Positions 512-14,304 of a stretch of DNA of 15,714 bases are shown in pieces. The stretch's first letter is position 1. Every line of letters starts with the position of its first letter. Origin of the DNA: Archangium sp. (lineage in GTDB: Bacteria > Myxococcota > Myxococcia > Myxococcales > Myxococcaceae); NCBI GenBank assembly GCA_031367385.1, contig JANLPS010000362.1, positions 1 to 15,714 on the forward strand, written 5' to 3'. The position numbers and the translations under genes were made by a program. Under the pieces are notes generated by a model. That model worked only from the letters and a program-made list of their open reading frames with translations. It had not been told where the DNA came from and ran no database searches.

Positions 512-551
512 GGTTCTCCTCCGAAGGGCATCACACGCGGCGGCCCAGGCT

Positions 552-1454
552 TCAGGTCTGGGTCGCCGTTTTTATTCGTTCGAGCAACGCCTGCGCTGAA
601 GGCTCGACCGGCTCGGGTACGCCGTACTGCCACGACGCTGACGGCGGCATCGACATCAGAATCGACTCGGTGCGACCGTTCGATTGCAGACCGAAGTGGG
701 TGCCACGGTCCCACACCAGGTTGAACTCGACGTAGCGGCCGCGGCGATGGGCCTGCCAGGCGCGGTGGGCTTCGGTGTAGGCCTGGTGGCGGTGCCGCTC
801 GACGATGGGCAAGTAGGCGTCGAGAAAGCCGTTCGCGACCGCCTGGGTGAAGGCAAAGCATTCGTCGAAGGTGCCGCCGAAGGGGTGCGCGGCGTTGAGG
901 TCGTCGTAGAAGAGGCCTCCGAGGCCGCGGCGCTCGTTGCGGTGCTTCAAGGTGAAGTAGGTGTCGCAGTCGGCTCGAAGCCGTTCGTACATCGCCGGGC
1001 TGGTGCAGAGCGTGCGGGCGACCGAGTGCCAGTGCTGCTCGTCGCTTGGGTCGTAGAAATACGGAGTGAGATCGAACCCGCCTCCGAACCACCAACTGGC
1101 GCCGTCGTCGGTGGTGAAGAAACGCACATTCAGGTGGCTGGTGGGCACGAAGGGGTTGCGCGGGTGCAGCACCAGCGAGACGCCGAGGGCCTGAAAGCCA
1201 CGACCGGCGAGGTGTGGGTTGCGCTGGGTCGCCGCGGGAGGCAGTGCGCGGCCGCGAACGTCAGAGAGGGCCACACCACCCCGTTCGAAGAGTGATGCGC
1301 CCTCAAGAATGCAGGTGCTGCCGCCGCCTTCGAGCGTGCCACCGGGCGCCTTGGCCCAGTCGTCGCGAATGAAAGGCCGGTCGTCGAGGGCGCCCAGGGT
1401 CGTGGTGAGCGTGGTGAGCAGCGCTTCGAGCACCGGCTTGACGGCGTCACGCAC
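552..1454 (-). CDS. hemF: Oxygen-dependent coproporphyrinogen III oxidase
   Basis: Motifs GVSLVLHPRNPFVPTSHLNVRFF, WWFGGGFDLTPY, RGLGGLFYDDL and RRGRYVEFNLVWDRGTHFGL. Start re-assigned to GTG at 1454 (300 aa, 8-nt overlap with the hemH stop) instead of 1580, whose extension lies inside hemH. Confidence 0.97.
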   Translation of the reverse strand: MRDAVKPVLEALLTTLTTTLGALDDRPFIRDDWAKAPGGTLEGGGSTCILEGASLFERGGVALSDVRGRALPPAATQRNPHLAGRGFQALGVSLVLHPRNPFVPTSHLNVRFFTTDDGASWWFGGGFDLTPYFYDPSDEQHWHSVARTLCTSPAMYERLRADCDTYFTLKHRNERRGLGGLFYDDLNAAHPFGGTFDECFAFTQAVANGFLDAYLPIVERHRHQAYTEAHRAWQAHRRGRYVEFNLVWDRGTHFGLQSNGRTESILMSMPPSASWQYGVPEPVEPSAQALLERIKTATQT

Positions 1455-2457
1455 CGCTGGGCCTGCAGAGCCGCTCGAGGGTGTCGATGAAAGCGGGGTC
1501 GGCGTTGAGGCAGGGCACGACGGTGAGTGATTCACCGCCCAGTGAGCGAAACTGCTCGGCCGCGCGGTTGCCGAGCTCATCGAGCGTCTCGAGGCAGTCG
1601 GCGACGAACCCCGGAGTGATCATCGCGATGCGTTTGACGCCCTTTGAAGCGAGCTCTTTGATCACCTCATCGGTGAACGGCGTGATCCACGGGGTGCGGC
1701 CGAGGCGCGATTGAAAGGTCGTGGTGTGCGGCACCTTCAGCGTCGAGGCGAGCGAGCGGGTCGTCGCCAGACACTGGGCGCGGTAACAGTGCCGATTGGT
1801 CTCACAGCAATTCGGGCTCGAGAAGCAATGACCGGTGCCGTCTTCGCGACGCAGCTGCCGCTCAGGGAGCCCGTGGTAACTGAACAGCACGTGTTGCACG
1901 TCGCCCGGGAGCGCAGCCAATTGCGCGGAGAGCGCTGACACGTAACCGGCGTCATCGAAGAAGGGAGGCACCATGCGCAGCGACGGCACCCGCGGGTGGC
2001 CCTGGTAGTGATTGTAGACGGCCTCGCGCACCGACCCGGTCGAGGCCGACGCCTCGTGGGGAAACATCGGCACGATGGTCACGTCGCGAATGCGCAGCGC
2101 GTCGCACCGGGCCAGCGCGTCTCGAAGCGACGGGCTGCCATAGCGCATCGCGAGCAGCACCTCGGTGTCGGGCATTCGCGCCTGAAGCGCACGTTGCTGC
2201 GCCTGGCTGTTCACCAGCAGGGGGGAGCCCGCCTCGGTCCACACTTTTTGATAGAGCTTCGCGGTCGTGCTCGGCCTGAACGGCAAGATGATCAGGTTCA
2301 AGAGCAACCAGCGGCCCACCGCGTTGAGGTCGATGACCCGAGGGTCAGAGAGAAATTCTCGCAGGTAGGTGCGAACCTTGGCCGGCGTCGGCGCGTCTGG
2401 CGTGCCGAGATTGATCAGCACCACCGCGCGTTTGCGTGATTCGAGTGAAGTCGTCAT
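1447..2457 (-). CDS. hemH: Ferrochelatase (protoporphyrin type) with Cys-rich internal insert
   Basis: Motifs LINLGTP, YLREFLSDPRVID, GSPL, AMRYGSP, FSYHGLP, FQSRLG..PW..P and GFVADCLETLDE. ATGA overlap with the upstream regulator stop at 2454-2457. Confidence 0.97.
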   Translation of the reverse strand: MTTSLESRKRAVVLINLGTPDAPTPAKVRTYLREFLSDPRVIDLNAVGRWLLLNLIILPFRPSTTAKLYQKVWTEAGSPLLVNSQAQQRALQARMPDTEVLLAMRYGSPSLRDALARCDALRIRDVTIVPMFPHEASASTGSVREAVYNHYQGHPRVPSLRMVPPFFDDAGYVSALSAQLAALPGDVQHVLFSYHGLPERQLRREDGTGHCFSSPNCCETNRHCYRAQCLATTRSLASTLKVPHTTTFQSRLGRTPWITPFTDEVIKELASKGVKRIAMITPGFVADCLETLDELGNRAAEQFRSLGGESLTVVPCLNADPAFIDTLERLCRPSGA

Positions 2458-3143
2458 GGTCGAAACAGGTACCCTCGCCCGCGCAAGGTGATCAGGTGCA
2501 CTGGCGCTTCGGCGTCGACCTCGAACAACCGTCGCAGCCGCATGATGAAGTTGTCGACCGTGCGGTCGGTGGGGAAAGCGTCCATCCCCCAGACTTCTTC
2601 GAGAATGTCGGCGCGCGAGAGTGCTTCGTTCGGGCGCTGGGCGAACAGCTGCATCAACCGCAGCTCCTTCTCTGAGAGCGACAATTCACCCTCGGTGGTG
2701 AACGCCTGGCCGGTATCGAAGCGCACCCAGTGCTGGCCGAGCGTGAGCCGGTTGTCTTTCATCGCGCTGACCGAGCCGCCACTTCGCCGCAGTACCGCTC
2801 GCACGCGCGCCAAGAGCTCCTGCACGTCGAAGGGCTTGGGCAGGTAGTCGTCGGCGCCGCAGTCGAGGCCGCGCACCCGTGAGGCCACGTCACTGCGCGA
2901 GGTCAACATCACGATCGCCGCGCGCACGCCGCCTTCACGTGCGCGCCGGGTGAGGTTGAAGCCATCGCCTCCGGGCAGCATCACGTCGACCAGCGCCAGC
3001 TCGAATTGGGCCTCGAGCAGCTTGGCCAGGCCCGTGGGGTAGTCGATGGCGACCTCGACCGTGAACCCGGCGTGGGCCAGGTTGAGACAGACCAGGTCGC
3101 GCACCAACGCGTCGTCTTCGATGACCAGAATGCGCTCAGCCAC
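2454..3143 (-). CDS. OmpR/PhoB-family DNA-binding response regulator
   Basis: Receiver domain ILVIEDD, DVMLPG (phosphoacceptor Asp), MLT and GADDYLPKPF; winged-helix C-terminus LSRADILEEVWG...DRTVDNFIMRLRR...TLRGRGY. GTG start with GGAG upstream; 8-nt overlap with the kinase stop. Confidence 0.95.
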   Translation of the reverse strand: MAERILVIEDDALVRDLVCLNLAHAGFTVEVAIDYPTGLAKLLEAQFELALVDVMLPGGDGFNLTRRAREGGVRAAIVMLTSRSDVASRVRGLDCGADDYLPKPFDVQELLARVRAVLRRSGGSVSAMKDNRLTLGQHWVRFDTGQAFTTEGELSLSEKELRLMQLFAQRPNEALSRADILEEVWGMDAFPTDRTVDNFIMRLRRLFEVDAEAPVHLITLRGRGYLFRP

Positions 3144-4101
3144 GGGGCGCTCCGTCGCTGACCGGGAGCGAGACTGTGAACACCGAGCCCAGGCCCGGGC
3201 CTTCGCTCGACGCGGTCAGCTTGGCGTGCATGCGCAGCGCCAGCTGTCGTGAAAGGTACAACCCGAGGCCACTGCCGTGCGTGACGCCGTCGTGCTTCTG
3301 GCGGCGAAACGGGTCGAAGAGCGTCTCGGCCTCAGCGGAGGGGAACCCCTGGCCTTCGTCACGCACCGAGAGCACCCACTCGCGGCCGCTGACTTGGGTG
3401 TGCACTTCGGCGCGGCCTCCGCCGTACTTGTGGGCGTTGTCGAGCAGGTTCTCGAGAATGACCCGAAAGGCGTCGGCGTCGACCAGCACTTGCGCAGACG
3501 CGACGGTCTTTACTTCGAGCGTTTCGCTGACGCCGGTGCGGCTGCGGTGCTCGAGAATCTGGTTCACCAGTGACTCGGCGTCGTGGGTCGTGGTGGTCAC
3601 GCTGCCCGCCGCGGCGAGCGAACGCTGCCAGGCCAAGATGGTCTCGGTCAGGTGCTCCAACCGGTCGACCTCGAGCAACCCGCGCTTGATGAACTCGACC
3701 TTGCGCTCTTCGGGCAGCGAGCCCAAGCCCAGGCTCTGCAACAGCGCGCGCACTCCGGCGATGGGGGTCTTCAATTCGTGCGAGGTGAACTGGAGCAGCC
3801 GCTCCATGCGTCGCTGCGCGAGGCTGCGCTGCCGGGCGATGTAGACCAACGCGGCGATCGCGGTCGCCATCGCCGCAGCCATCGCGGCGAACTCGGTGGT
3901 GATCATGAAGTGCATGCGCGCGGCCTCGGCACTGAGGTCGGCCGGAGCGCCAGAGGTGAGCGCGTCGAGGCGTTCTTTGAGCGCGATGTTCTGCGTGACC
4001 AGGCGCTGCGAGAGCACCGCCCACCATGGCACCACGACCGCGACGACTGACAGCGCCAGCGCCGCCACCAGATATTCGAGCTTGGCCTTGAGAAAGGGCA
4101 T
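3136..4101 (-). CDS. Membrane sensor histidine kinase (2 TM, HisKA, HATPase_c)
   Basis: Two hydrophobic N-terminal segments; H-box SHELKTP, N-box ENLLDNAHKY, G1 DEGQGF, F-box LFDPF and G2 GSGLGL. Confidence 0.95.
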   Translation of the reverse strand: MPFLKAKLEYLVAALALSVVAVVVPWWAVLSQRLVTQNIALKERLDALTSGAPADLSAEAARMHFMITTEFAAMAAAMATAIAALVYIARQRSLAQRRMERLLQFTSHELKTPIAGVRALLQSLGLGSLPEERKVEFIKRGLLEVDRLEHLTETILAWQRSLAAAGSVTTTTHDAESLVNQILEHRSRTGVSETLEVKTVASAQVLVDADAFRVILENLLDNAHKYGGGRAEVHTQVSGREWVLSVRDEGQGFPSAEAETLFDPFRRQKHDGVTHGSGLGLYLSRQLALRMHAKLTASSEGPGLGSVFTVSLPVSDGAPRG

Positions 4102-4113
4102 CGCGTGGGCCTT

Positions 4114-5385
4114 TCAGGGCTTCAAGAGTGCGTCGAGAATGGTTTCGACGTTCGCCGGCGTGTGCGCGGTCGACAAGAAGCTCACTTCGTAGCCGCTCGG
4201 GGGCAGGTACACGCCGCGACCGAGCCAGGTGGCGTAGCTGGCGTGGTACCGGTCGATGACCTCTGAGCGAATCGCCTCGGCGCTCGTCGGCGCATTCGGC
4301 GTTTTCTCGAAGTAGGGCCAGAACATCGAGCCTTGCCGTTGCAGCGCCAGGCCATTGGCGCGCTGGCGCCACCCGGCTTCGAGCTGGGCGCCGAGCTTCT
4401 CGAGCGACTCGTAGACGCCGGGGCGATTGAGCTCTCTCAAGGTGGCGATGCCCGCCGCGAGCGTGACCGGGTTGCCGGCCATCGTGCCTGCTTGGTACAC
4501 GCCGCCGAGGGGCGCGAGCTGATCCATGATCTCTTGACGGCCGACGACGGCCGCGACCGGGAGCCCGCCTCCGACGATTTTGCCGAGCGTGGTCAGGTCG
4601 GGCTTGACGCCGACCAGGCGGCCGTAGCCACCGAAGTGAAAGCGAAACCCGGTGATGACCTCGTCGAAGACCAGCAGGGCGCCGTGCTTGGTGCAGTGCT
4701 CACGGAGCGCGGTGAGCCAGGCTTTTCGTTGCGGCAGCAGGCCGTTGTTCGCGGGCATCGGCTCGAGAATCACCGCGGCGAGGCGGCTGCCGTATTGCTC
4801 GAAGGCGCTGATCAACGCGGCGTCGTCATCGAGCGGCACCACGATGGTTTGAGAGGCGATGCTCTCGGGCACACCCAAGCTGTCAGCGAGCCCCTGGGTC
4901 ACGACGCCGCTGCCCGCCTTGACGAGGAGCGAGTCGAGGTGCCCGTGGTAACAGCCACTGAACTTCAAGATCATCGACCGCTTGGTGTACGCGCGGGCCA
5001 GGCGCATCGCAGTCGACACGGCCTCGGTGCCCGAGACGACGAAGCGAACCTTGCCGTGCTCGGGGAAGGCCTCGAGCACCAATTCAGCGAGCGCGATTTC
5101 GTTGCGGTGCACGGTGCCGAAGGCGAGCCCATCGCGCGCGGCGGCGACCACCGCTTCGATGACGGCCGGGTGTGCGTGCCCGAGCACCAGCGGGCCCCAG
5201 GCCATGCAGAGGTCGAGCAGGGTGTTGCCGTCTTCGTCTTTGGCGAACGCGCCTTCGCCCTTCGAGAAGTAGCGCGGAGTGCCTCCGACCTTTCGAAAGG
5301 CGCGCACCGGGCTCGAGACGCCAGCCGGCATGAGGTGCTGCGCGTGGGCGAACAGCGCCTCAGCAATTTTCAGTGAGTGCGGCAT
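4114..5385 (-). CDS. hemL: Glutamate-1-semialdehyde 2,1-aminomutase
   Basis: Motifs GVSSPVRAF, WGPLVLGHAHP, SGTEA, GCYHGH.D.LL, FDEVITGFR, LGKIVGGGLP (PLP lysine) and YQAGTMAGNP. Confidence 0.97.
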   Translation of the reverse strand: MPHSLKIAEALFAHAQHLMPAGVSSPVRAFRKVGGTPRYFSKGEGAFAKDEDGNTLLDLCMAWGPLVLGHAHPAVIEAVVAAARDGLAFGTVHRNEIALAELVLEAFPEHGKVRFVVSGTEAVSTAMRLARAYTKRSMILKFSGCYHGHLDSLLVKAGSGVVTQGLADSLGVPESIASQTIVVPLDDDAALISAFEQYGSRLAAVILEPMPANNGLLPQRKAWLTALREHCTKHGALLVFDEVITGFRFHFGGYGRLVGVKPDLTTLGKIVGGGLPVAAVVGRQEIMDQLAPLGGVYQAGTMAGNPVTLAAGIATLRELNRPGVYESLEKLGAQLEAGWRQRANGLALQRQGSMFWPYFEKTPNAPTSAEAIRSEVIDRYHASYATWLGRGVYLPPSGYEVSFLSTAHTPANVETILDALLKP

Positions 5386-6280
5386 GGGTCTCCGTGAGGG
5401 GCAGGTCGGCGAGTAGGCGGTTGGCGTGCTCGAGGGTCAGAGGCGTGTTCCAAGGCAGGTTCAGGGTGGCGAGCGCCCAGCGGCCGTCGCGCTCGAGACC
5501 GGCGTGCAAGGTGGTGCTGTTGCTGGGCAGGTAGGCGCCGAAGGGGCTCGAGCACCCGCCTTCGAAGGCGCGCAGCAAGGTGCGCTCGGTCTCGACCTGA
5601 CGGCGGGTCTCGGCGTCGTCGATGACCTTCAGCGCTGCGAGCGTGGCGGTGTCGTCTTCGCGGCACTGCACTGCGATGGCACCCTGGCCTGGAGCGGGGA
5701 TCCACACCGAGGGGGTCAAGGCGACGACGTGAAAGGCCGAGAGGTCGAGCTCGAGGCGGCGCAGGCCGGCGGCGGCGAGGATGATGGCTTCGTAGTCGGC
5801 GCGGGCGGCGAGCTTCGAGACCCGGGTGGGCACGTTGCCGCGAAGGGGCACGGCGGTGGCCCAGGGTGCGTGGTGGCGCAGGAGGGCCATGCGGCGCAGC
5901 GAGGAGGCGCCGACGCGGGCGCCTTCGCGTACGGGCAGGGCGCGCGTGGTATCGACGGCGTCGCGGCTGATCAGCAGCCAGTCACGGGGGTCGGCTCGCT
6001 GCAGAATCGCGCCGAGGCAGAGGCCCTTGGGTTGCGCGGTCGGGAGGTCTTTGAGCGAGTGAACGGCGACGTCGACCTCGTTGGCGCGCAGCGCTCGCTC
6101 GAGCTCTTCGGTGAAGAAGCCCTTCTCGAGCTTGCCGGCGAGAATGGGAGATTGATCAACGTCTCCGCGGGTCTCGATGACGATTTCGCGCGTGGCGATG
6201 CCGAGCCGGGTCGCGACGTGGTGCGTCTGCCAGCGAGCGAGCGCGCTGCCGCGGGTGGCGAGCCTGAGCTCAAGGGGCAC
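5360..6280 (-). CDS. hemC: Hydroxymethylbilane synthase (porphobilinogen deaminase)
   Basis: Motifs LATRGSALARWQ, TRGD, KGFFTEELE, VHSLKDLPT, GASSLRR, LRGNVPTR, PAPGQGA and EGGCSSP (cofactor Cys). Start re-assigned to GTG at 6280 (306 aa, 11-nt overlap with the hemA stop). Confidence 0.96.
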   Translation of the reverse strand: MPLELRLATRGSALARWQTHHVATRLGIATREIVIETRGDVDQSPILAGKLEKGFFTEELERALRANEVDVAVHSLKDLPTAQPKGLCLGAILQRADPRDWLLISRDAVDTTRALPVREGARVGASSLRRMALLRHHAPWATAVPLRGNVPTRVSKLAARADYEAIILAAAGLRRLELDLSAFHVVALTPSVWIPAPGQGAIAVQCREDDTATLAALKVIDDAETRRQVETERTLLRAFEGGCSSPFGAYLPSNSTTLHAGLERDGRWALATLNLPWNTPLTLEHANRLLADLPLTETHAALTENC

Positions 6281-7475
6281 GGCCGGCCCTCCGGGTGGCT
6301 TCGAGGAGGCGGTGGGTGAAGCCGCGCAGTTGAGCGGTGATGCGGCGGGCTTCTTTGGGGGGCAGGGTTGCGACGAGGGCGTCGATGTCGTCTTCGAAGA
6401 ACCGTTTTCGCTCTGACTCGATGGCTTCGAGCACGTGGTGCTGGGCCGCGTCGTCGAGGGCTTCTTCGAGCGCTTCGGCGCCTTGATCAGCGAGCAGTTG
6501 CAGGGCCGCCATCGAGTCGCTCTCGAGCGTGAGGCCGCGGCGGGCGAGGAGCGTGTCGAGGTCGATGCGGGCCCACCCTGGCGCCGAGACGACCTGCGCG
6601 GGAGAGCCGAGGTCGATGACGATGGGTGCCGTGTCGTCGGCTGAGCCAACCCCGTTCGTCCTGAGGCTCGCGAAGGAGGAACCCTGATCGCCATTGGCAT
6701 CGTTCGGCAAGCCCACCACGGCCAGCGGATCACCCCCGAGGACCCGTTCACCTCGCGGCGGCAACTGCAGATGCGCCTTCGGAGCACCACTGCACACGAC
6801 GACCGCCGTTGCGCGCTTCGCCTCCGCGGTGAATCGCTCCTGATCAGCCCTCCCGAACCCGCTTGCCCCGATGAACCCGTCTCGTCGCAGCGCTGCCAGC
6901 ACCTGCCCGCCGATATCGCCGATGCCCAGCACGAGCACTGCCGCCTCGCGTGACAACGACCTCAACTCCTGCAGCACCAGCGACTGCACTCCCACGCTTG
7001 CGCTCGCACCGGTCTCACGCCGAAGCTGCAGCATGCGGCCGAGCGCATGCCAGCACAGGTTCAACGTGCGGTCGGTCGAACGCAGCGCATGCCCCGCTTC
7101 GAAAGCCTTGATCACTTGCCGGCCAATGGCGTGCTCTCCTTCAGCGACCGACTCGAGCCCGAACGCCACGCGCACCAGATACGAGACTGCACCGCGAGAG
7201 ACCTTGGCGTGCATGGCCCGACCAGCCCCCGCTGCGCCCAGCCGCGACAGCAGCGCGCCCCGGAGCAGCTCGGCCGCCCAGGTCGGGTTGCTCGCTGAGA
7301 TCACCCATTCGATCCGCGAGCAGCTCTCGATGCGAACGATTCCGGTGGCATCGCCTCCGCGGCGAAGCAGTGCACTGGGCGAATCATCGGCCTCGTCGAT
7401 GGCTTTGAGCATCGCGCGCACGCTCGATGGGCCCTCGCGAAAGTCCATACCGATGACGGCGAGCGGCACGGTCAT
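6270..7475 (-). CDS. hemA: Glutamyl-tRNA reductase, divergent, with an in-frame insertion
   Basis: ESCSRIE (cf. STCNRTE), RVAFGLESVAEGE..I.RQV.KAF (cf. RVASGLDS.V.GE.QILGQV..AF), Rossmann VLVLGIGDIG and VIDLGSP (cf. IDLAVP). Located directly upstream of hemC and hemL. Confidence 0.88.
   Translation of the reverse strand: MTVPLAVIGMDFREGPSSVRAMLKAIDEADDSPSALLRRGGDATGIVRIESCSRIEWVISASNPTWAAELLRGALLSRLGAAGAGRAMHAKVSRGAVSYLVRVAFGLESVAEGEHAIGRQVIKAFEAGHALRSTDRTLNLCWHALGRMLQLRRETGASASVGVQSLVLQELRSLSREAAVLVLGIGDIGGQVLAALRRDGFIGASGFGRADQERFTAEAKRATAVVVCSGAPKAHLQLPPRGERVLGGDPLAVVGLPNDANGDQGSSFASLRTNGVGSADDTAPIVIDLGSPAQVVSAPGWARIDLDTLLARRGLTLESDSMAALQLLADQGAEALEEALDDAAQHHVLEAIESERKRFFEDDIDALVATLPPKEARRITAQLRGFTHRLLEATRRAGRAP
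6651..6677 (-). repeat. REP-like palindromic repeat copy inside the hemA coding sequence
   Basis: Plus strand cccgttcgtcctgag-gctcg-cgaagga versus reverse complement of 7531-7558 cccgttcgtcctgag-cgaagt-cgaagga: 15-nt and 7-nt exact blocks. Confidence 0.85.
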
Positions 7476-7523
7476 GATGCGCTCACATCGCGCGAAGATG
7501 CGAAGGGCCGCTGACCGGTTGCA

Positions 7524-7609
7524 GCGAGGGTCCTTCGACTTCGCTCAGGACGAACGGGTTTGGGCGCGGTCGTCGCGAGGGTCGTTCGAGTTCGCTCACC
7601 ACGAACGGG
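7524..7609 (+). repeat. Tandem pair of 35-nt REP-like imperfect palindromes in the hemY-hemA gap
   Basis: 7524-7558 gcgagggtccttcgacttcgctcaggacgaacggg and 7575-7609 gcgagggtcgttcgagttcgctcaccacgaacggg are 31/35 identical, separated by 16 nt. A degenerate inverted partial copy lies at 7492-7509. Confidence 0.9.
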
Positions 7610-7611
7610 CG

Positions 7612-8889
7612 TCATGCGGCGTTCGCCTCACGCGACGAGACGAGGTGCGCCACTGCCGCACGCCCCGCCTGCCGGCCAAAGGTCGCCGCGTCGCGCACGG
7701 TACCCGCGCCCAGATACCCACCCGCCAAGAACACCCCGTCACGCTCGACCGCCGCCCGCAGCGCAGCGACCCTCGCAGCATGCCCGAGCCTGGGAGGCGT
7801 GAACCCGCGCTCCCATCGCTCGACATGAAACACCGCCTCGGCGCGGCCGCCCGTCAGCCGCCGCAGATCTGCGTCGATGCCAGCCTTCATCGCAGCGTCA
7901 TCTAGCCCGACCCGCTCGGGATGCCACGCCCCACCGACGAACGAGGCGAACTGCGCAGGCCTTGTCGGGTCGAGTGAGCCGGTGAAGATGCACCCCAACG
8001 AGAACAACCCATCAGCCGGGTTCGCCAAATACCCAAATCCGTTCGGCAATCTCGACTCGGCCCCAGTCCAGTGAACGACGGCAATCGAGACCTGCTCGAA
8101 GCGGGGCACCGCGGGCTCCAACACTGACTGCAGCGCTGAGGGCGCCGTCGCAACCACCACGGCCTCGGCGACCAGATCACCGGTGACGTGCCACCCCGCA
8201 GCCGATCTTCGAAGCCGACCCGCAGGCCGCGCGAGGTGCTCGACCGCGGCGACTGCCCGCCTGCCAATCGACGAGAACCCATGCCGAAGGCGATACGACA
8301 CCGGCCGGCCAGGCACCCGTTTGGTGCCCTTGATCAACCCGCGAAGCACCGACCCGTGCGCGCGCTCAGCCTCGACCCACGCCGGGAGCGCGCTCTTCGC
8401 CTCGAGCTCGTCAATCGGAGTCGCGAACACGCCGGTCAACGCCGTCGCTGCGACCCGCTCGGTGAACGAACGACCAAACCGACGCTCGAGAAAGGCCTGC
8501 ACTGATTCACCATCGGCTCCAGCGGGCCCGCCGCCGAGCAGCTCACGGCAAAGCGACGCCCGTTCGCGCCAGGTCAGCGCTTGGGTGGTCAGCAGGCTCT
8601 TCGGCGAAGGCGAAATCGCGCACAGCTGCCCATCACGCACCAGATACCGCGGCAGCCCCGAAGGCAGCGGCAGCACCTCGCTGATCAGCTGCAGCTGTTC
8701 GAGCACCCACCACACGTCACTCGCCGAGCCCAGCAAGCTCTGCGGCCCGACCTCATGCCCCTTGACCGTGCGGAGCAGCCCACCAGGAGCAGGGTCGACC
8801 AGCACCACCGAGCGACCGGCGGCGCGTACCTCGAGCGCTGCAGCGATGCCGGCCATGCCAGCGCCGACGACCGCGACGTCAACCTGCAT
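7612..8889 (-). CDS. hemY: FAD-dependent protoporphyrinogen oxidase (HemY/PgoX family)
   Basis: N-terminal VAVVGAGMAGIAAA dinucleotide fold, GG..RT, EVGPQS, ESVQAFLERRFG, GFGYL, LGCIF and C-terminal LAGGY..G. Sits directly downstream of hemE with an 11-nt overlap. Confidence 0.88.
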   Translation of the reverse strand: MQVDVAVVGAGMAGIAAALEVRAAGRSVVLVDPAPGGLLRTVKGHEVGPQSLLGSASDVWWVLEQLQLISEVLPLPSGLPRYLVRDGQLCAISPSPKSLLTTQALTWRERASLCRELLGGGPAGADGESVQAFLERRFGRSFTERVAATALTGVFATPIDELEAKSALPAWVEAERAHGSVLRGLIKGTKRVPGRPVSYRLRHGFSSIGRRAVAAVEHLARPAGRLRRSAAGWHVTGDLVAEAVVVATAPSALQSVLEPAVPRFEQVSIAVVHWTGAESRLPNGFGYLANPADGLFSLGCIFTGSLDPTRPAQFASFVGGAWHPERVGLDDAAMKAGIDADLRRLTGGRAEAVFHVERWERGFTPPRLGHAARVAALRAAVERDGVFLAGGYLGAGTVRDAATFGRQAGRAAVAHLVSSREANAA

Positions 8890-9913
8890 GGGCCGAAACC
8901 TCGGCGCAGAGCGCAGCGACGTTGGCCTCGGGCGTGCCGGGCAAGATGCCGTGACCCAGGTTCACGATGCACCCGCGCGTGCCAATCGCGTCGAGCTCGG
9001 CGAGCAGCGCCCGGGTCTTCGCCCGCACCACCTCTTCACTCGCGAACAACAGCACCGGGTCGAGCTGCCCCTGCAACACCTTGCCCGGCAGGGCGGCCCG
9101 GGCTTCCGAGAACGACGTTCTCCAGTCGAGTGAAATGCCGTCGACCTCGACCTCGCGCAACACCTCGAGCAAGTGCATGCCGCCCTTGATGAACAAGATG
9201 ACTGGCTTGCCGCTCTTACGAATGAGCGCCGCGGCGCGATTCAGCGCGGGCACGGCGAACGCCCGGTAATCTTCTCGGCTCAGCAGCCCGCCCCAGGTGT
9301 CGAAGAGCTGCACTGCGTCGGCTCCGGCGTCGAGCTGCGCCAGACACAACTGCGCGGCGGCGTCGGCCAGCACGTTGAGGGCGTCGCGAGCCAGACCCGG
9401 GTCAGTGGCCATCAAGCTGCGGGCGAGTCGAAAATCATCACTGCCGCCGCCCTCGACGCAATACGAGAACAAGGTGAACGGGGCTCCCGCGAAGCCCAGC
9501 AGGCCCCACTGGCCTTCCAGCGCGTGATGCAGGTGTTTCACCGCGGCCGGCAGAAATTGCAGCCGGTCCATCAGATTGGCGGTGTTCCACCCACGCAGGT
9601 CTTCGCGCGAGCGCATCGTCTTGGTGAAGACCGGGCCCTCACCCTTCTCGAACGAGACCCCAGCCCCCAGCGCTTGGGGAATGACGAGAATGTCGCTGAA
9701 CACAATCGCCGCATCGAGGGCGAATTTTCGCAGCGGCTCGAGCGCGACGGTGGTCGACAGCGCGGGGGTCTGACAGACCTCCCAGAAGCCGTGCTCCGCC
9801 CGAACGGCTCGGTATTCAGACAGATAGCGGCCGGCCTGCCGCATCAACCACACCGGTGGCCGGTCGACCGGGCGCTGCTGAAGGGCCGCTAGAAATCGCT
9901 CTCGACGCTGCAT
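8879..9913 (-). CDS. hemE: Uroporphyrinogen decarboxylase
   Basis: Motifs PVWLMRQAGRYL.EY, DAAIVFSDIL, GFAGAPFTL..Y, QLFDTWGG and NLGHGI. Confidence 0.98.
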   Translation of the reverse strand: MQRRERFLAALQQRPVDRPPVWLMRQAGRYLSEYRAVRAEHGFWEVCQTPALSTTVALEPLRKFALDAAIVFSDILVIPQALGAGVSFEKGEGPVFTKTMRSREDLRGWNTANLMDRLQFLPAAVKHLHHALEGQWGLLGFAGAPFTLFSYCVEGGGSDDFRLARSLMATDPGLARDALNVLADAAAQLCLAQLDAGADAVQLFDTWGGLLSREDYRAFAVPALNRAAALIRKSGKPVILFIKGGMHLLEVLREVEVDGISLDWRTSFSEARAALPGKVLQGQLDPVLLFASEEVVRAKTRALLAELDAIGTRGCIVNLGHGILPGTPEANVAALCAEVSAHAG

Positions 9914-9946
9914 GGGCCCAAGTCGTAGCCAGGGCGGGCCAGGCTT

Positions 9947-9964
9947 CTGTCACAAGTCGGTCAT
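9947..9964. promoter_or_regulatory. Candidate OmpR/PhoB-type binding site (7-bp direct repeat, 11-bp period) in the divergent hemE/hemD gap
   Basis: CTGTCAC-AAGT-CGGTCAT matches the E. coli Pho box consensus CTGTCAT-A(A/T)A(T/A)-CTGTCA(C/T) at 15 of 18 positions. Confidence 0.55.
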
Positions 9965-10007
9965 GCGAGCTGCCAGTGCCCCCGCCGCGCCGGGTAGGGT
10001 CACCGCG

Positions 10008-10733
10008 GTGTTGACCTGGGCCATTACCCGCGCGGCGCGTGAATCGAACGCGCTGGTTGATCAGCTGACGACGCAGGGCCTCCACGCCCTGGCGTTGCCG
10101 TGCATCGAGCGCTCGACCAGACCAGTCTCGGCGTGGCGCCCACCAGGCCAGCGGGTCATCGTGCTCACCAGCGTGGCCGCGGTCGAGGCGGTCTCCGACG
10201 AGTTGGTGGCCTCAGCCCCCGCTCACCTCGCCGCGCTCTCGCCTCACACCAGCGCCGCGCTCGCGAAGCTCGAGCTCACGGCCACCATCGAATCGAGTGA
10301 AGGCGTGGTCGCGCTCGCGCAGGCCATCGCTCGGTCGCTCGACGTGTGGAACATTCGCGCCGCCAGCTTCTGGTACCCCACGAGCTCAGCGGGCCACGAC
10401 GCCCCCGAGCAGGCCGAGGCGATCGCCGCGCTGACGCCCTATGGCCCGGTCACCCGAGTCGCCGCCTACGACGTGGCCGCGCCCAGCGGGCTGATTGATC
10501 AGCTCCGCACCTTGCCGCGAGAAGTGGGAGTGCTCTTCAGCAGCCCCTCGGCGGTGAAGCACTTCATCACGGCCCATGAAAAGCTCGGGCTCACCCCGTC
10601 GGTTCGGCTCGCCGCCTGCTGGGGTGACTCGACCCGTCGTGCGGCCCAAGCCCATTTCTCACGCACCCACCTCTTGCCCCGAGCGCGAAATCTGGCCGAC
10701 GCGCTGCGCGAACTGGAGCTCTCCCATGGCTGA
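10008..10733 (+). CDS. hemD: Uroporphyrinogen-III synthase
   Basis: WAITR at the N-terminus, LPCIE, VLTSVAAV, RVAAYDV, LFSSPSAV and CWGDST (cf. IG.TT). Start re-assigned to GTG at 10008 (TTG 10011 or ATG 9963 are alternatives). 8-nt overlap with hemB. Confidence 0.85.
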   Translation: MLTWAITRAARESNALVDQLTTQGLHALALPCIERSTRPVSAWRPPGQRVIVLTSVAAVEAVSDELVASAPAHLAALSPHTSAALAKLELTATIESSEGVVALAQAIARSLDVWNIRAASFWYPTSSAGHDAPEQAEAIAALTPYGPVTRVAAYDVAAPSGLIDQLRTLPREVGVLFSSPSAVKHFITAHEKLGLTPSVRLAACWGDSTRRAAQAHFSRTHLLPRARNLADALRELELSHG

Positions 10734-11697
10734 GTCCTTTCCCTCCACCCGGCTTCGAAGACTGCGCCGTACGCCCGCCATTCGCCGGCTGGTGCGCGAG
10801 GTCGATGTCTCGCTCTCGCACCTGGTGCAGCCGTACTTCGTCGTCAGCGGCCGCGGGGTGGAGCGCGAGACCCGGCCGGGCAGCGGCCTGTGGCAGATGT
10901 CGGGTGATGTCATCGCCGAAGAGACGCGCCAGCTGCACAAGGCGGGCGTCGGCGGCGTGATGCTGTTCGGCGTACCCGACGAGAAATGGGCCGAGGCTGA
11001 CCCGCTCGCCCCTTCACTCTCGACGTTGCTCGATGCCGTGAAGCAGCTTCGCTCGGCCTGTGCCGAAGCGGTGATCATGGCCGACGTGTGCCTCTGCAGC
11101 CTGACAGATCACGGTCACTGCGGCGTGGTGGTTGATCAGCAGATCGACAACGACGCCTCGCTGCCGAAGTTGGCCGAGATGTCGGTGGCCCTGGCCCGCG
11201 CCGGAGTCGATTTCGTCTGCCCCAGCGACATGATGGACGGCCGAGTCGGCTTCATTCGCCGCGCGCTCGACGAGGCGAGCTTCAAAGACGTGGGCATCGT
11301 CGCCTATTCGATCAAGATGGCGTCGGCGTTCTACGGCCCGTTTCGCGCGGCCGCCAACAGCGCTCCAGCGTTCGGAGACCGGGCCAGCTACCAGATGCCA
11401 GCCTCGAACCGCCGCGAGGCCCTGCGCGAATTGCAGCTCGACGTCGACGAGGGGGCTGATCTGCTGCTGATCAAACCGGCGCTCTCGAACCTCGATCTCA
11501 TTCGCGACGCGCGCGAGACGACCCAGCACCCGCTCGTCGCGTACCAGGTGTCGGGTGAGTTCGCGATGGTGCGGGCCGCGGCCGATGCCGGCCTGCTCGA
11601 CTTCGAGCGCACGATGACCGAGATGCTGACTTCGATTCGCCGCGCGGGGGCTGACCTCATCATCTCGTACGACACCCGACGGCGCGCCGGGCTATAG
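10726..11697 (+). CDS. hemB: Porphobilinogen synthase (ALA dehydratase), Zn-binding Cys type
   Basis: RLRRLR, DVCLCSLTDHGHCG (three Zn-ligand Cys), PSDMMDGRV, YSIKMASAFYGPFR, LIKP and AYQVSGEF. ATG at 10726 with GGAG at 10715-10718; 323 aa. Confidence 0.98.
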   Translation: MAESFPSTRLRRLRRTPAIRRLVREVDVSLSHLVQPYFVVSGRGVERETRPGSGLWQMSGDVIAEETRQLHKAGVGGVMLFGVPDEKWAEADPLAPSLSTLLDAVKQLRSACAEAVIMADVCLCSLTDHGHCGVVVDQQIDNDASLPKLAEMSVALARAGVDFVCPSDMMDGRVGFIRRALDEASFKDVGIVAYSIKMASAFYGPFRAAANSAPAFGDRASYQMPASNRREALRELQLDVDEGADLLLIKPALSNLDLIRDARETTQHPLVAYQVSGEFAMVRAAADAGLLDFERTMTEMLTSIRRAGADLIISYDTRRRAGL

Positions 11698-11848: not shown

Positions 11849-12685
11849 ATGAAAATCGTGCGATTGGGTGTGTTGGCGTTGGCCGCGTGCGGTGCTCCGG
11901 TTGGCAACGTCTCCTTCACCACCAAAGGCGACAGCTCGGTGACCGAACCGATACCCGCTGATTCACCCAGCAAGGCCGGTTTCGTCGACGGGTGGTCGGT
12001 GAAGCTGAAGAAGACGTTGGTGATCATCAAAGAGACCACGATCACCGACTCGACGGGCAAGGTCATCTTCAAGCAGCCCAGTGGGTTGCTCTACGACCTG
12101 AACCGCGCCGGGCCTTTCCCCGTGCAAGACGCGACTGACTTGCTGGCGAAGAAGTACGCCAAGGTGAGCTACGCCATCGGGTTCGACCCGCAATTTCAAA
12201 TCGTGAACATGGATGCGGCCACCGTGCCCGACGCGGCCTTGATGCGAAACAATTCGTTCGGCGTTTACATCGAGGGCACCGCCACCAAAGGCACGACCAG
12301 CAAAGAATTTCAGTGGGGCTTCGCGACCGATACGCTCTACGACGACTGCAGCGATGCGGCATCGGGGGGCGCCGGAGTCACCGTCAAAGCGGGCGCGATC
12401 GAGGCCGTCGAGCTGAGCATTCACGCCGACCACCTGTTTCTCGACAGCCTGACCGCCGAGTCAGGCAAGCTGCGCTTCGACGCGCTGGCCAACGCCGACA
12501 AACCGGTCGATGGCACCATCACCCAAGACGAGCTCAAAAACGTTCAGCTGAGCGCGGTGCCGTCGATGCCGTACGTGGTCGGCGGGGCCACCGAGGTGAA
12601 GACCCTGGCCGACTTTGTGCTCGCGGCGAGCCGCAACATCGGTCACTACCGTGGCGGCGGAGAGTGCACCGTCAAGGCCCGGTGA
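11849..12685 (+). CDS. Putative lipoprotein of unknown function
   Basis: Signal peptide MKIVRLGVLALAA-C with lipobox LAAC; beta-rich body with HADHLF and DGTITQDEL segments. Confidence 0.8.
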   Translation: MKIVRLGVLALAACGAPVGNVSFTTKGDSSVTEPIPADSPSKAGFVDGWSVKLKKTLVIIKETTITDSTGKVIFKQPSGLLYDLNRAGPFPVQDATDLLAKKYAKVSYAIGFDPQFQIVNMDAATVPDAALMRNNSFGVYIEGTATKGTTSKEFQWGFATDTLYDDCSDAASGGAGVTVKAGAIEAVELSIHADHLFLDSLTAESGKLRFDALANADKPVDGTITQDELKNVQLSAVPSMPYVVGGATEVKTLADFVLAASRNIGHYRGGGECTVKAR

Positions 12686-14304
12686 GCCTCCTCGACGAGC
12701 TCATCGCTGCCCGAAGCCGTGGCGACGCCAGCGGCGCGCTGACGTACGCGCTCAGCGAATGGCATCGCACCAAGCACCCGCGCGTGGCCGACGTCATCGA
12801 CGTGCTCGGAGCCGAGGCGCTGATCACCTTCTCGCCCCCAAAGACCAGAACCAAAGAGACGTTTCATCAAGCCTGGCTCGAGGTCGCCCGCGAACATGAC
12901 GAGGCGGCGACCGGGTGGCTGGCGCAGACGCTGACCCAGCGACTGCCAATCGAAGAAGATCATCGCGGCATTCTTCGCGACGATTACACGCAGACCAAGT
13001 ACGCCGCGCTCTTCGAGCGGTTGAACGCCCTGGGCCGCCGGGTGCCTGACCCGCGAATCGCCTCGGCGCTGTGCGCGATGCTCGAGACCCCCACCTTCGC
13101 CGTATGGGACTTGGAGCGCACCCGGCCGATCTATTCGCCGATCGCCGAGCTGATCAGCGGGCAGGGTGACGTGCGGTGCATCGAGCGGCTCCAGGCGCTG
13201 CAGCGGGCCCCGCGGGCGGCGAAGGGTATTCTGCGTGAGGTCGTCGCTGAGCTGATCGACCCGTTGATCACCGCGCTGCGAAGGGTCGACGTCGTCAAGC
13301 TCGATGAGCCCGAGGGGTGGCAGCAGCTGCTGCCCGTGTACCCCGTGGGGGTGGCCGACGAACGGCCCCTGCTCGAGGCCGTGTACGCACAGCCTTCGAA
13401 CGAGCGGCTCAGGGCGGTGTACGCCGACGCGCTGCTCGAGCGAGGTGACCCTCGGGGTGAATTCATTTCGCTGCAGTTGCTGCGCGACCCGAGCTCCAAG
13501 CAGATCAAGCGCATGAATTCGCTGCTGAAGAGCCACCGCGCACAGTGGTTGGGCACGCTTTCGAACGTGTTGACGCGGCCGGTTTTCGCAGGAGGGTTTC
13601 TTCAGAGTGCCGAGCTGGCGCAGAGCTCGGTCGCCACCGAAGAAGCCTGGCAGGCAGCGGCCCGGGCCGAGGGCCTGGCCACCATCGAGTCGCTGTTTCA
13701 GGGGCGCGGCACGGCGAACCATTACACCGAATTTCTCACCTCGGGAGCGTTGCGAAGCCTCAAGCGGCTCGACCTGCCTTCATACAAGCTCTTGTGGCTG
13801 CTCGAGAAACAGCCGCTGTCGCAAGGGCTCGAGCATCTGGTGCTCCCCGAGCGGGGTTCGGTGAAGCACCTGGTGAAGATCGGAGCGCTGCCGTTGCCCT
13901 CGCTGCGAACGTTGACCACGCCGATTGAAGCGGGCGAGACCGCCGAGTGGGTCGACTCGTTGATCAAGGGCCGGTTGATCGGCCGAATCACCCGGTACGA
14001 GGTGACCGCGCAATGGGGCACGGCGCTGCCTTTGATTCGCGAGGTGTTCTCGAGGTGGCCGGTGCTCGAGGCGAGTGCGCTCTCGCTGCAAGACGTGATC
14101 GAAGTGCAGCGACGCGAGAAGGGGCTCGCGCTCACCTTTTCGAATGCGGTTTTCGATGAAGCGATGGCGGTGTGGTCGTCGCTCCCGCAACCGGTGACCG
14201 AGGTGCGGGTGCGCACTCTGCGACACTGGCCCGTCAAAGACGTCGGGGCCCTGAGGGCGCTGGTTGAAGGGCGCTCGGCGACCTTGCAGATTGATGACAG
14301 CTGA
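12682..14304 (+). CDS. TIGR02996-like (repeat-companion) domain protein with LRR-like C-terminal region
   Basis: GTG at 12682 overlaps the lipoprotein TGA (GTGA); 540 aa. Central LLEAVYAQPSNERLRAVYADALLERGDPRGEFISLQL matches my recollection of the TIGR02996 pattern; LRSLKRLDL, LEHLVL and LPSLRTL are LRR-like. Confidence 0.8.
   Translation: MSLLDELIAARSRGDASGALTYALSEWHRTKHPRVADVIDVLGAEALITFSPPKTRTKETFHQAWLEVAREHDEAATGWLAQTLTQRLPIEEDHRGILRDDYTQTKYAALFERLNALGRRVPDPRIASALCAMLETPTFAVWDLERTRPIYSPIAELISGQGDVRCIERLQALQRAPRAAKGILREVVAELIDPLITALRRVDVVKLDEPEGWQQLLPVYPVGVADERPLLEAVYAQPSNERLRAVYADALLERGDPRGEFISLQLLRDPSSKQIKRMNSLLKSHRAQWLGTLSNVLTRPVFAGGFLQSAELAQSSVATEEAWQAAARAEGLATIESLFQGRGTANHYTEFLTSGALRSLKRLDLPSYKLLWLLEKQPLSQGLEHLVLPERGSVKHLVKIGALPLPSLRTLTTPIEAGETAEWVDSLIKGRLIGRITRYEVTAQWGTALPLIREVFSRWPVLEASALSLQDVIEVQRREKGLALTFSNAVFDEAMAVWSSLPQPVTEVRVRTLRHWPVKDVGALRALVEGRSATLQIDDS

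Follow-up and report, generated by a model that had tools for sequence, protein, structure and literature searches.

A kinase-regulator pair in the heme biosynthesis cluster of an Archangium genome is very probably the Myxococcota form of Leptospira HemK/HemR

In Leptospira interrogans, the genes for a sensor kinase and a response regulator, LB014 and LB015, stand between hemL and hemE and are transcribed together with both (PMC2266917). The kinase has two membrane segments and H98, the regulator carries D53, and mutants of this system, HemKR (HemK/HemR, also named Hklep/Rrlep), require hemin or 5-aminolevulinic acid (ALA) (PMC2266917). In L. biflexa, hemKR (LEPBIa1423/1422) is unlinked to hem genes, yet it controls hemA (PMC2266917, PMC11426443). 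HemR activates hemA and its hem-box is TGACA[N6]TGACA, while HemK of L. biflexa is a kinase by default in which ALA triggers phosphatase activity through T102; the authors ask whether the signal read by HemK is ALA, a porphyrin further along the pathway or heme (PMC11426443). The Leptospira HemKR regulon also takes in heme oxygenase and TonB/ExbBD uptake genes (exbB1/exbD1). Outside the spirochetes, two-component genes are likewise linked to heme-synthesis genes in Bdellovibrio bacteriovorus, according to a single sentence marked "data not shown" (PMC2266917). No paper on a HemKR-like system in myxobacteria was found in searches of the open-access literature. Here we describe a kinase-regulator pair embedded in the heme cluster of Archangium sp. 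(assembly GCA_031367385.1). The window, that is, the whole stretch analyzed, is the 15,714-nt contig JANLPS010000362.1 (C233 in our numbering) of an 8.0-Mb genome.

The cluster contains all nine enzymes that lead from glutamyl-tRNA to heme (Pfam and NCBIfam). Its minus-strand unit reads hemE-hemY-hemA-hemC-hemL-kinase-regulator-hemH-hemF, and hemD-hemB are divergent on the plus strand. Three elements concern us most:

3136..4101, minus strand: HemK-like sensor kinase, 321 amino acids, HisKA and HATPase_c (Pfam)
2454..3143, minus strand: HemR-like OmpR/PhoB-family response regulator, 229 amino acids, GTG start, Response_reg and Trans_reg_C (Pfam)
9948..9963, minus strand: hem-box-like direct repeat TGACC-GACTTG-TGACA, in the spacer that separates divergent hemE and hemD (motif and matrix scan)

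An earlier, sequence-only reading of the window had placed a kinase and an OmpR/PhoB-family regulator between hemL and hemH, and its figures were exact throughout: hemL and the kinase gene are separated by 12 nt (4113-4102), the kinase and regulator genes overlap by 8 nt, and the ATGA at 2454-2457 is common to the regulator stop and the hemH start. From this spacing we infer co-transcription and translational coupling of the hemL-kinase-regulator-hemH stretch. The same reading proposed a dedicated, possibly undescribed system that autoregulates the pathway. A dedicated autoregulating system is likely, given the conserved linkage and the conserved predicted operator before the cluster, but the claim of novelty falls, since a hemL-adjacent OmpR-type pair is the published layout of L. 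interrogans LB014/LB015 (PMC2266917). The locus is most likely the known HemKR system in a new group, not a new system. The pair is highly likely, by its sequence features, to belong to the HemKR family, and it is very probably the Myxococcota form of Leptospira HemK/HemR and would feed back on the cluster via the hemE box.

The resemblance extends from gene order to single residues. In both groups the kinase and then the regulator directly follow hemL in a hem operon (on L. interrogans chromosome II the order is hemL-kinase-regulator-hemE); the kinase is about 300 residues long, with a short loop joining its two membrane segments; the HisKA histidine is followed at +4 by a threonine (H98/T102 in Leptospira) and the regulator has Asp53; and the first hem gene is preceded, at a distance of about 50 nt, by a TGAC direct repeat on the sense strand. 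Also common to both are a WW and R-x3-M-x3-E signature in the kinase and an FPT-x-RT-x-DN wing/helix region in the regulator, whose DNA-binding region reads WGMDAFPTDRTVDNFIMRLR in the window and WGEESFPTNRTIDNSIVRLR in L. interrogans. In our alignments the phospho-site H108 and the phosphatase residue T112 of the window kinase, as well as the receiver D53, are invariant among relatives; because such residues are generic to many systems, this match is weak when taken alone. There are differences as well. The window pair is followed by hemH-hemF and the Leptospira pair by hemE-hemN; the window box stands before hemE, with divergent hemD-hemB on its other side sharing it, whereas the Leptospira box heads hemA; the window-type box is looser at its fifth base, TGAC[G/A/C]; and the window genome gave no further convincing box target.

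The sequence-only reading had chosen HssRS and HrrSA/ChrSA for comparison, and these were the wrong comparators, Leptospira HemK/HemR being closer. They too exert two-component control of heme homeostasis with membrane-embedded sensing. Staphylococcus HssR drives the hrtAB efflux pump via a different repeat, and Corynebacterium HrrA/ChrA are NarL/LuxR-type regulators. The window regulator, in contrast, is OmpR-type (Trans_reg_C) and lies inside a synthesis cluster, and a Pfam scan of the window found no transporter genes beside the pair.

The hydropathy profile of the kinase has two hydrophobic segments, at about residues 5-30 and 67-90, with a short outside loop between them, and neither a HAMP nor a PAS domain is present. 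In an AlphaFold model (26 sequences; mean predicted local distance difference test score, pLDDT, 84.8) helices 2-50 and 57-126 form a hairpin that leads directly into the DHp domain; the model has no folded sensor domain. Foldseek returned only generic kinase cores and the ESM Atlas unnamed HisKA fragments, and PDB sequence searches, one using the whole regulator and one its receiver domain, gave no HemR entry among the best 15 and 60 of 108 matches. The signature residues, W26-W27 and R62-M66-E70 in the window kinase, are invariant or nearly so in the window-type and Leptospira-type alignments, from which the signature was defined in this analysis rather than taken from a published criterion. 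After removal of short or H-box-less matches (5 window-type, 12 Leptospira-type), WW and M-x3-E were found in 113/115 window-type and 106/108 Leptospira-type kinases. A spacing-bound version of the test picked out one of 58 own-genome kinases, the window kinase itself. In the kinases of the more distantly related loci L059-L080 the outside loop is about 60 residues longer, and WW and R-x3-M-x3-E are kept.

Comparisons across the two phyla connect both proteins to their Leptospira counterparts. The window kinase is the top match in its genome to a full-length Leptospira kinase profile (97.2 vs 88.8 bits), and the window regulator is the best match to the Leptospira DNA-binding domain (62.4 vs 56.2 and 70.3 vs 66.0 bits). 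When only the parts before the H-box were compared, profile against profile, the probability was 92.5% (E 4.8e-7). In a catalytic-core tree that excluded the membrane part, 18 window-type and 13 Leptospira-type kinases split from 22 own-genome paralogues with a support of 98 (Shimodaira-Hasegawa-like approximate likelihood ratio test, SH-aLRT). Regulator trees also unite the two groups, with support of 95/92 when one Leptospira row was included and 93 with 14 Leptospira rows. P0350, the sole regulator obtained from Bdellovibrionales, falls among the Leptospira-type proteins and outside the Myxococcota type. When the plasmid set was searched with the regulator at E 1e-30, no Leptospira protein was among the matches listed; a hemL search did list Leptospira.

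Synteny was counted over the best 80 of 249 loci that carry a relative of the regulator. A hem gene lies within 10 kb in 66 of the 80, and hemL, kinase and regulator stand in this order in 57; the linkage of the pair to hem genes is therefore not due to chance, and the gene-neighborhood search suggested by the earlier reading did find the homologues mostly near hem genes. As the next hem gene behind the regulator, 42/80 loci have hemH, 5/80 hemF and 5/80 hemB, and 28/80 have none. Given this variation, the fixed neighbor is hemL upstream and not ferrochelatase, and coupling to ferrochelatase does not hold as a conserved feature, hemE being in that place in L. interrogans. The closest relatives come mostly from uncultured Myxococcota. 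In a survey of the phylum that scored 10 candidates per genome, 31/201 sampled genomes had a kinase profile match at E 1e-60 or better (9/73 in the window's own family). The regulator was not found in four kinase-lacking genomes, where the best scores were 216-220 bits vs 378 for a true orthologue. At three loci (L014, L073, L074) the regulator directly follows hemL with no kinase between, and at six (L002, L012, L030, L047, L115, L118) kinase and regulator lie apart from any hem gene. The loci L002 and L014 bear one isolate name, which suggests a split or duplicated system.

The window box is one mismatch from the published TGACA-N6-TGACA, and lies in the short spacer between hemE and hemD, with its 5' end 50 nt ahead of the ATG of hemE; the perfect box of L. 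interrogans sits 53 nt before hemA. For a matrix built from relatives, the window box is the best site in the genome (29.1 bits, next 22.3), although taken alone it is not significant (0.48 expected by chance). The same matrix returned the L. interrogans hemA box as the top site in a 19-kb locus (15.6 vs 8.1 bits). Two truncated loci were dropped, leaving 36 (the window and 35 relatives) in which hemE has 150 nt of DNA before it; there TGAC-N7-TGAC, a relaxed pattern set after the data were seen, was found on the sense strand within 150 nt in 36/36, vs 2/4242 control windows. The published motif with at most one mismatch was present in 27/36, and the box was 48-55 nt from hemE in 26/36.

Box and kinase were compared at the hemE loci of 28 genomes hand-picked from the phylum survey. 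All 14 kinase-bearing genomes had a box near hemE: in 12 it was on the sense strand and no more than about 110 nt away, in one it was about 270 nt upstream, and in one it was inverted before a hemH-hemE unit. Five of these 14 duplicate loci used to train the matrix, and nine are outside the training set. None of the 14 kinase-lacking genomes had a box upstream of hemE, one having a core match past the hemE 3' end; the genomes are kin, the 14 negatives are all of one family, and in most negatives the search was limited to 1.5 kb either side of hemE. Within the window genome, 2 sites exceeded 19 bits and 47 exceeded 13. Because column-shuffled matrices gave 2-13 and 19-127, respectively, no wider regulon is shown. 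Motif and matrix scans found no internal box in the cluster, so the kinase and regulator genes likely depend on the hemE promoter. No sigma-70 promoter was predicted at the box, and the nine terminator-like sites were near chance (6.2 +/- 2.5). An A located 22 nt past the box is conserved in 25/26 loci, and 9914-10007 has no clear ribosome-binding site. The sequence here suggests that the hemE leader may be very short, with the box near -42.

The second-best genomic site for the matrix (C46:36751, 22.3 bits) precedes tonB, a target that would recall exbB1/exbD1 of Leptospira. A near-identical box precedes tonB in 5 of 23 tonB loci (G000, the window genome, and G201, G207, G179 and G059), and the box-bearing tonB has a different OmpR regulator gene directly upstream in G201, G179 and G059. 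Since G179 and G059 lack the kinase-regulator system, the hem-box motif is not exclusive to a HemKR-like system. tonB was rejected as a regulon member, its site being kept in system-lacking genomes beside another OmpR gene, and its box was assigned, by gene context, to a paralogue regulator. In the window genome, tonB (G000:C46:35979-36770) is preceded by a three-half-site TGAC repeat that is likely targeted by the neighboring OmpR pair at C46:39898-42182, with cross-talk to the HemR-like protein possible.

Several observations weigh against reading the pair as HemKR, together with the limits given above for the box counts and the retention of the tonB box in two genomes without the system. 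In pairwise alignment with the L. interrogans proteins, 24% of residues are identical in the kinase and 32% in the regulator. With single full-length Leptospira queries, the window kinase comes 7th in its genome and the window regulator 3rd, and these are not reciprocal best hits; a full-length Leptospira regulator profile puts the window regulator 4th, and a Leptospira N-terminal-only profile puts the window kinase 5th, at E 4. The Leptospira branches are long and the outgroups come almost entirely from one genome, because of which orthology with Leptospira HemK/HemR is likely but not proven. The low identities, the lack of reciprocal best hits and the long branches would suit convergence, in which an unrelated OmpR-type pair, HemKR-like in its box and its targets but no orthologue, was independently recruited beside hemL and perhaps senses membrane heme, redox state or oxygen. 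TGTCA-type 11-bp repeats are moreover common among OmpR/PhoB operators. However, the same signature at the same positions and the same gene position would have to arise twice, the strand and spacing of the box (50 vs 53 nt) would have to converge, and the kinase-core grouping holds independent of the membrane part. We regard convergence as unlikely.

It is still less likely that another regulator, PhoB-type or the C46 paralogue, reads the hemE box while the embedded pair controls other genes. The five tonB boxes, three with an OmpR gene directly upstream and two in genomes without the system, speak for such a reader, as do two own-genome paralogues that carry the RTVDNF helix of the window regulator; the window box is presumably a reverse-complemented pho-box-like repeat. 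Against such a reader, the hemE box tracks the kinase (14/14 vs 0/14), four searched negatives (three of them among the 14) keep 5-10 other OmpR-type proteins, G059 has a tonB box and none at hemE, and the pair scores far below the NCBIfam PhoB/PhoR cut-offs (regulator 173.6 vs 296.2, kinase 79.3 vs 334.2 bits). We expect with high confidence that the window regulator binds the predicted box at 9948-9963. That kinase and regulator are mere passengers, playing no part in the control of heme synthesis, is most improbable. The 14/80 regulator loci that lack a nearby hem gene, which also count against HemKR, would accord with passengers, as would the few loci with a regulator and no kinase after hemL; yet the linkage outlasts several gene-order rearrangements, box and kinase co-occur, and hemKR of L. 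biflexa is likewise unlinked while controlling hemA.

Under the HemKR assignment, and by transfer from L. biflexa, the kinase would be on by default and phosphorylate the regulator, a dimer of which would bind the box and activate the hemE unit, perhaps along with divergent hemD-hemB. As the hemE unit includes the kinase and regulator genes, a positive loop is proposed. With a build-up of ALA or a later porphyrin, the membrane part would flip the kinase to a phosphatase through T112, hem transcription would fall, and the pathway would be damped. By this analogy the regulator probably activates rather than represses hemE, and we lean towards ALA or another pathway metabolite as the signal.

HemKR, which in the literature found has been studied experimentally only in Leptospira, would thus be a patchy controller of heme synthesis in Myxococcota. 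The cross-phylum comparison yields a handful of membrane residues that bear on what HemK senses, be it ALA, a later porphyrin or heme. WW and R-x3-M-x3-E are kept from spirochetes to myxobacteria although the outside loop differs in length, from about 35 residues up to about 100. A swap of the Leptospira loop segment F31-S62 still rescued growth (PMC2266917). An L. biflexa-like sequence (P0210) matches the numbering of that paper (F31, S62, H98, T102) and has R52, M56 and E60 inside the swapped segment. Loss of these residues with growth rescued would fit a role in the off-switch and not in the default on-state. Tentatively, and with more doubt than confidence, we suggest that WW and R-x3-M-x3-E could form the HemK ligand site at the outer membrane face, that in this lineage a single box set between two divergent promoters could gate all nine heme enzymes, and that the regulon may have re-acquired a box at hemJ. 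If so, the hemJ box was re-acquired where hemJ stands in for hemY: of 11 hemJ loci without hemY, 7 have a second box before hemJ. In these close relatives (L004, L006-L009, L011, L014), hemJ with its own box is the convergent gene that follows hemH or hemF.

The remaining genes of the cluster are as follows:

552..1454, minus strand: hemF, oxygen-dependent coproporphyrinogen oxidase; NF003727 above cut-off, putative GTG start at 1454, frame open to 1580
1447..2457, minus strand: hemH, ferrochelatase; TIGR00109 above cut-off
4114..5385, minus strand: hemL, glutamate-1-semialdehyde aminomutase (makes ALA); NF000818 above cut-off, and synteny
5360..6280, minus strand: hemC, hydroxymethylbilane synthase; TIGR00212 above cut-off, putative start near 6280
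6270..7475, minus strand: hemA, divergent glutamyl-tRNA reductase; 41.9 bits vs a TIGR01035 cut-off of 209.55
7612..8889, minus strand: hemY-type protoporphyrinogen oxidase; 92.2 bits vs a cut-off of 97.85
8879..9913, minus strand: hemE, which opens the minus-strand unit; TIGR01464 above cut-off
10008..10733, plus strand: hemD, uroporphyrinogen-III synthase; PF02602, putative GTG start at 10008 from relatives
10726..11697, plus strand: hemB, porphobilinogen synthase; NF006762 above cut-off

The hemA gene has a 39-codon in-frame insertion (6635-6751, minus strand) that is absent in 8/8 aligned relatives and leaves the frame open. It includes a short repeat once; counted with a loose pattern, this repeat has 287 copies in the genome. 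Two further copies lie in the hemY-hemA spacer (7476-7611), the sole long gap in the minus-strand unit and one that is far shorter in relatives. Between the convergent first open reading frame (ORF) and hemF, a 15-pair hairpin with a T-tail (537-569, plus strand) is a likely terminator. Beyond hemB, the ORFs at 11849-12685 and about 12690-14304, both on the plus strand, had no Pfam match; the first is a probable lipoprotein, and the second carries what we take to be a TIGR02996-like motif.

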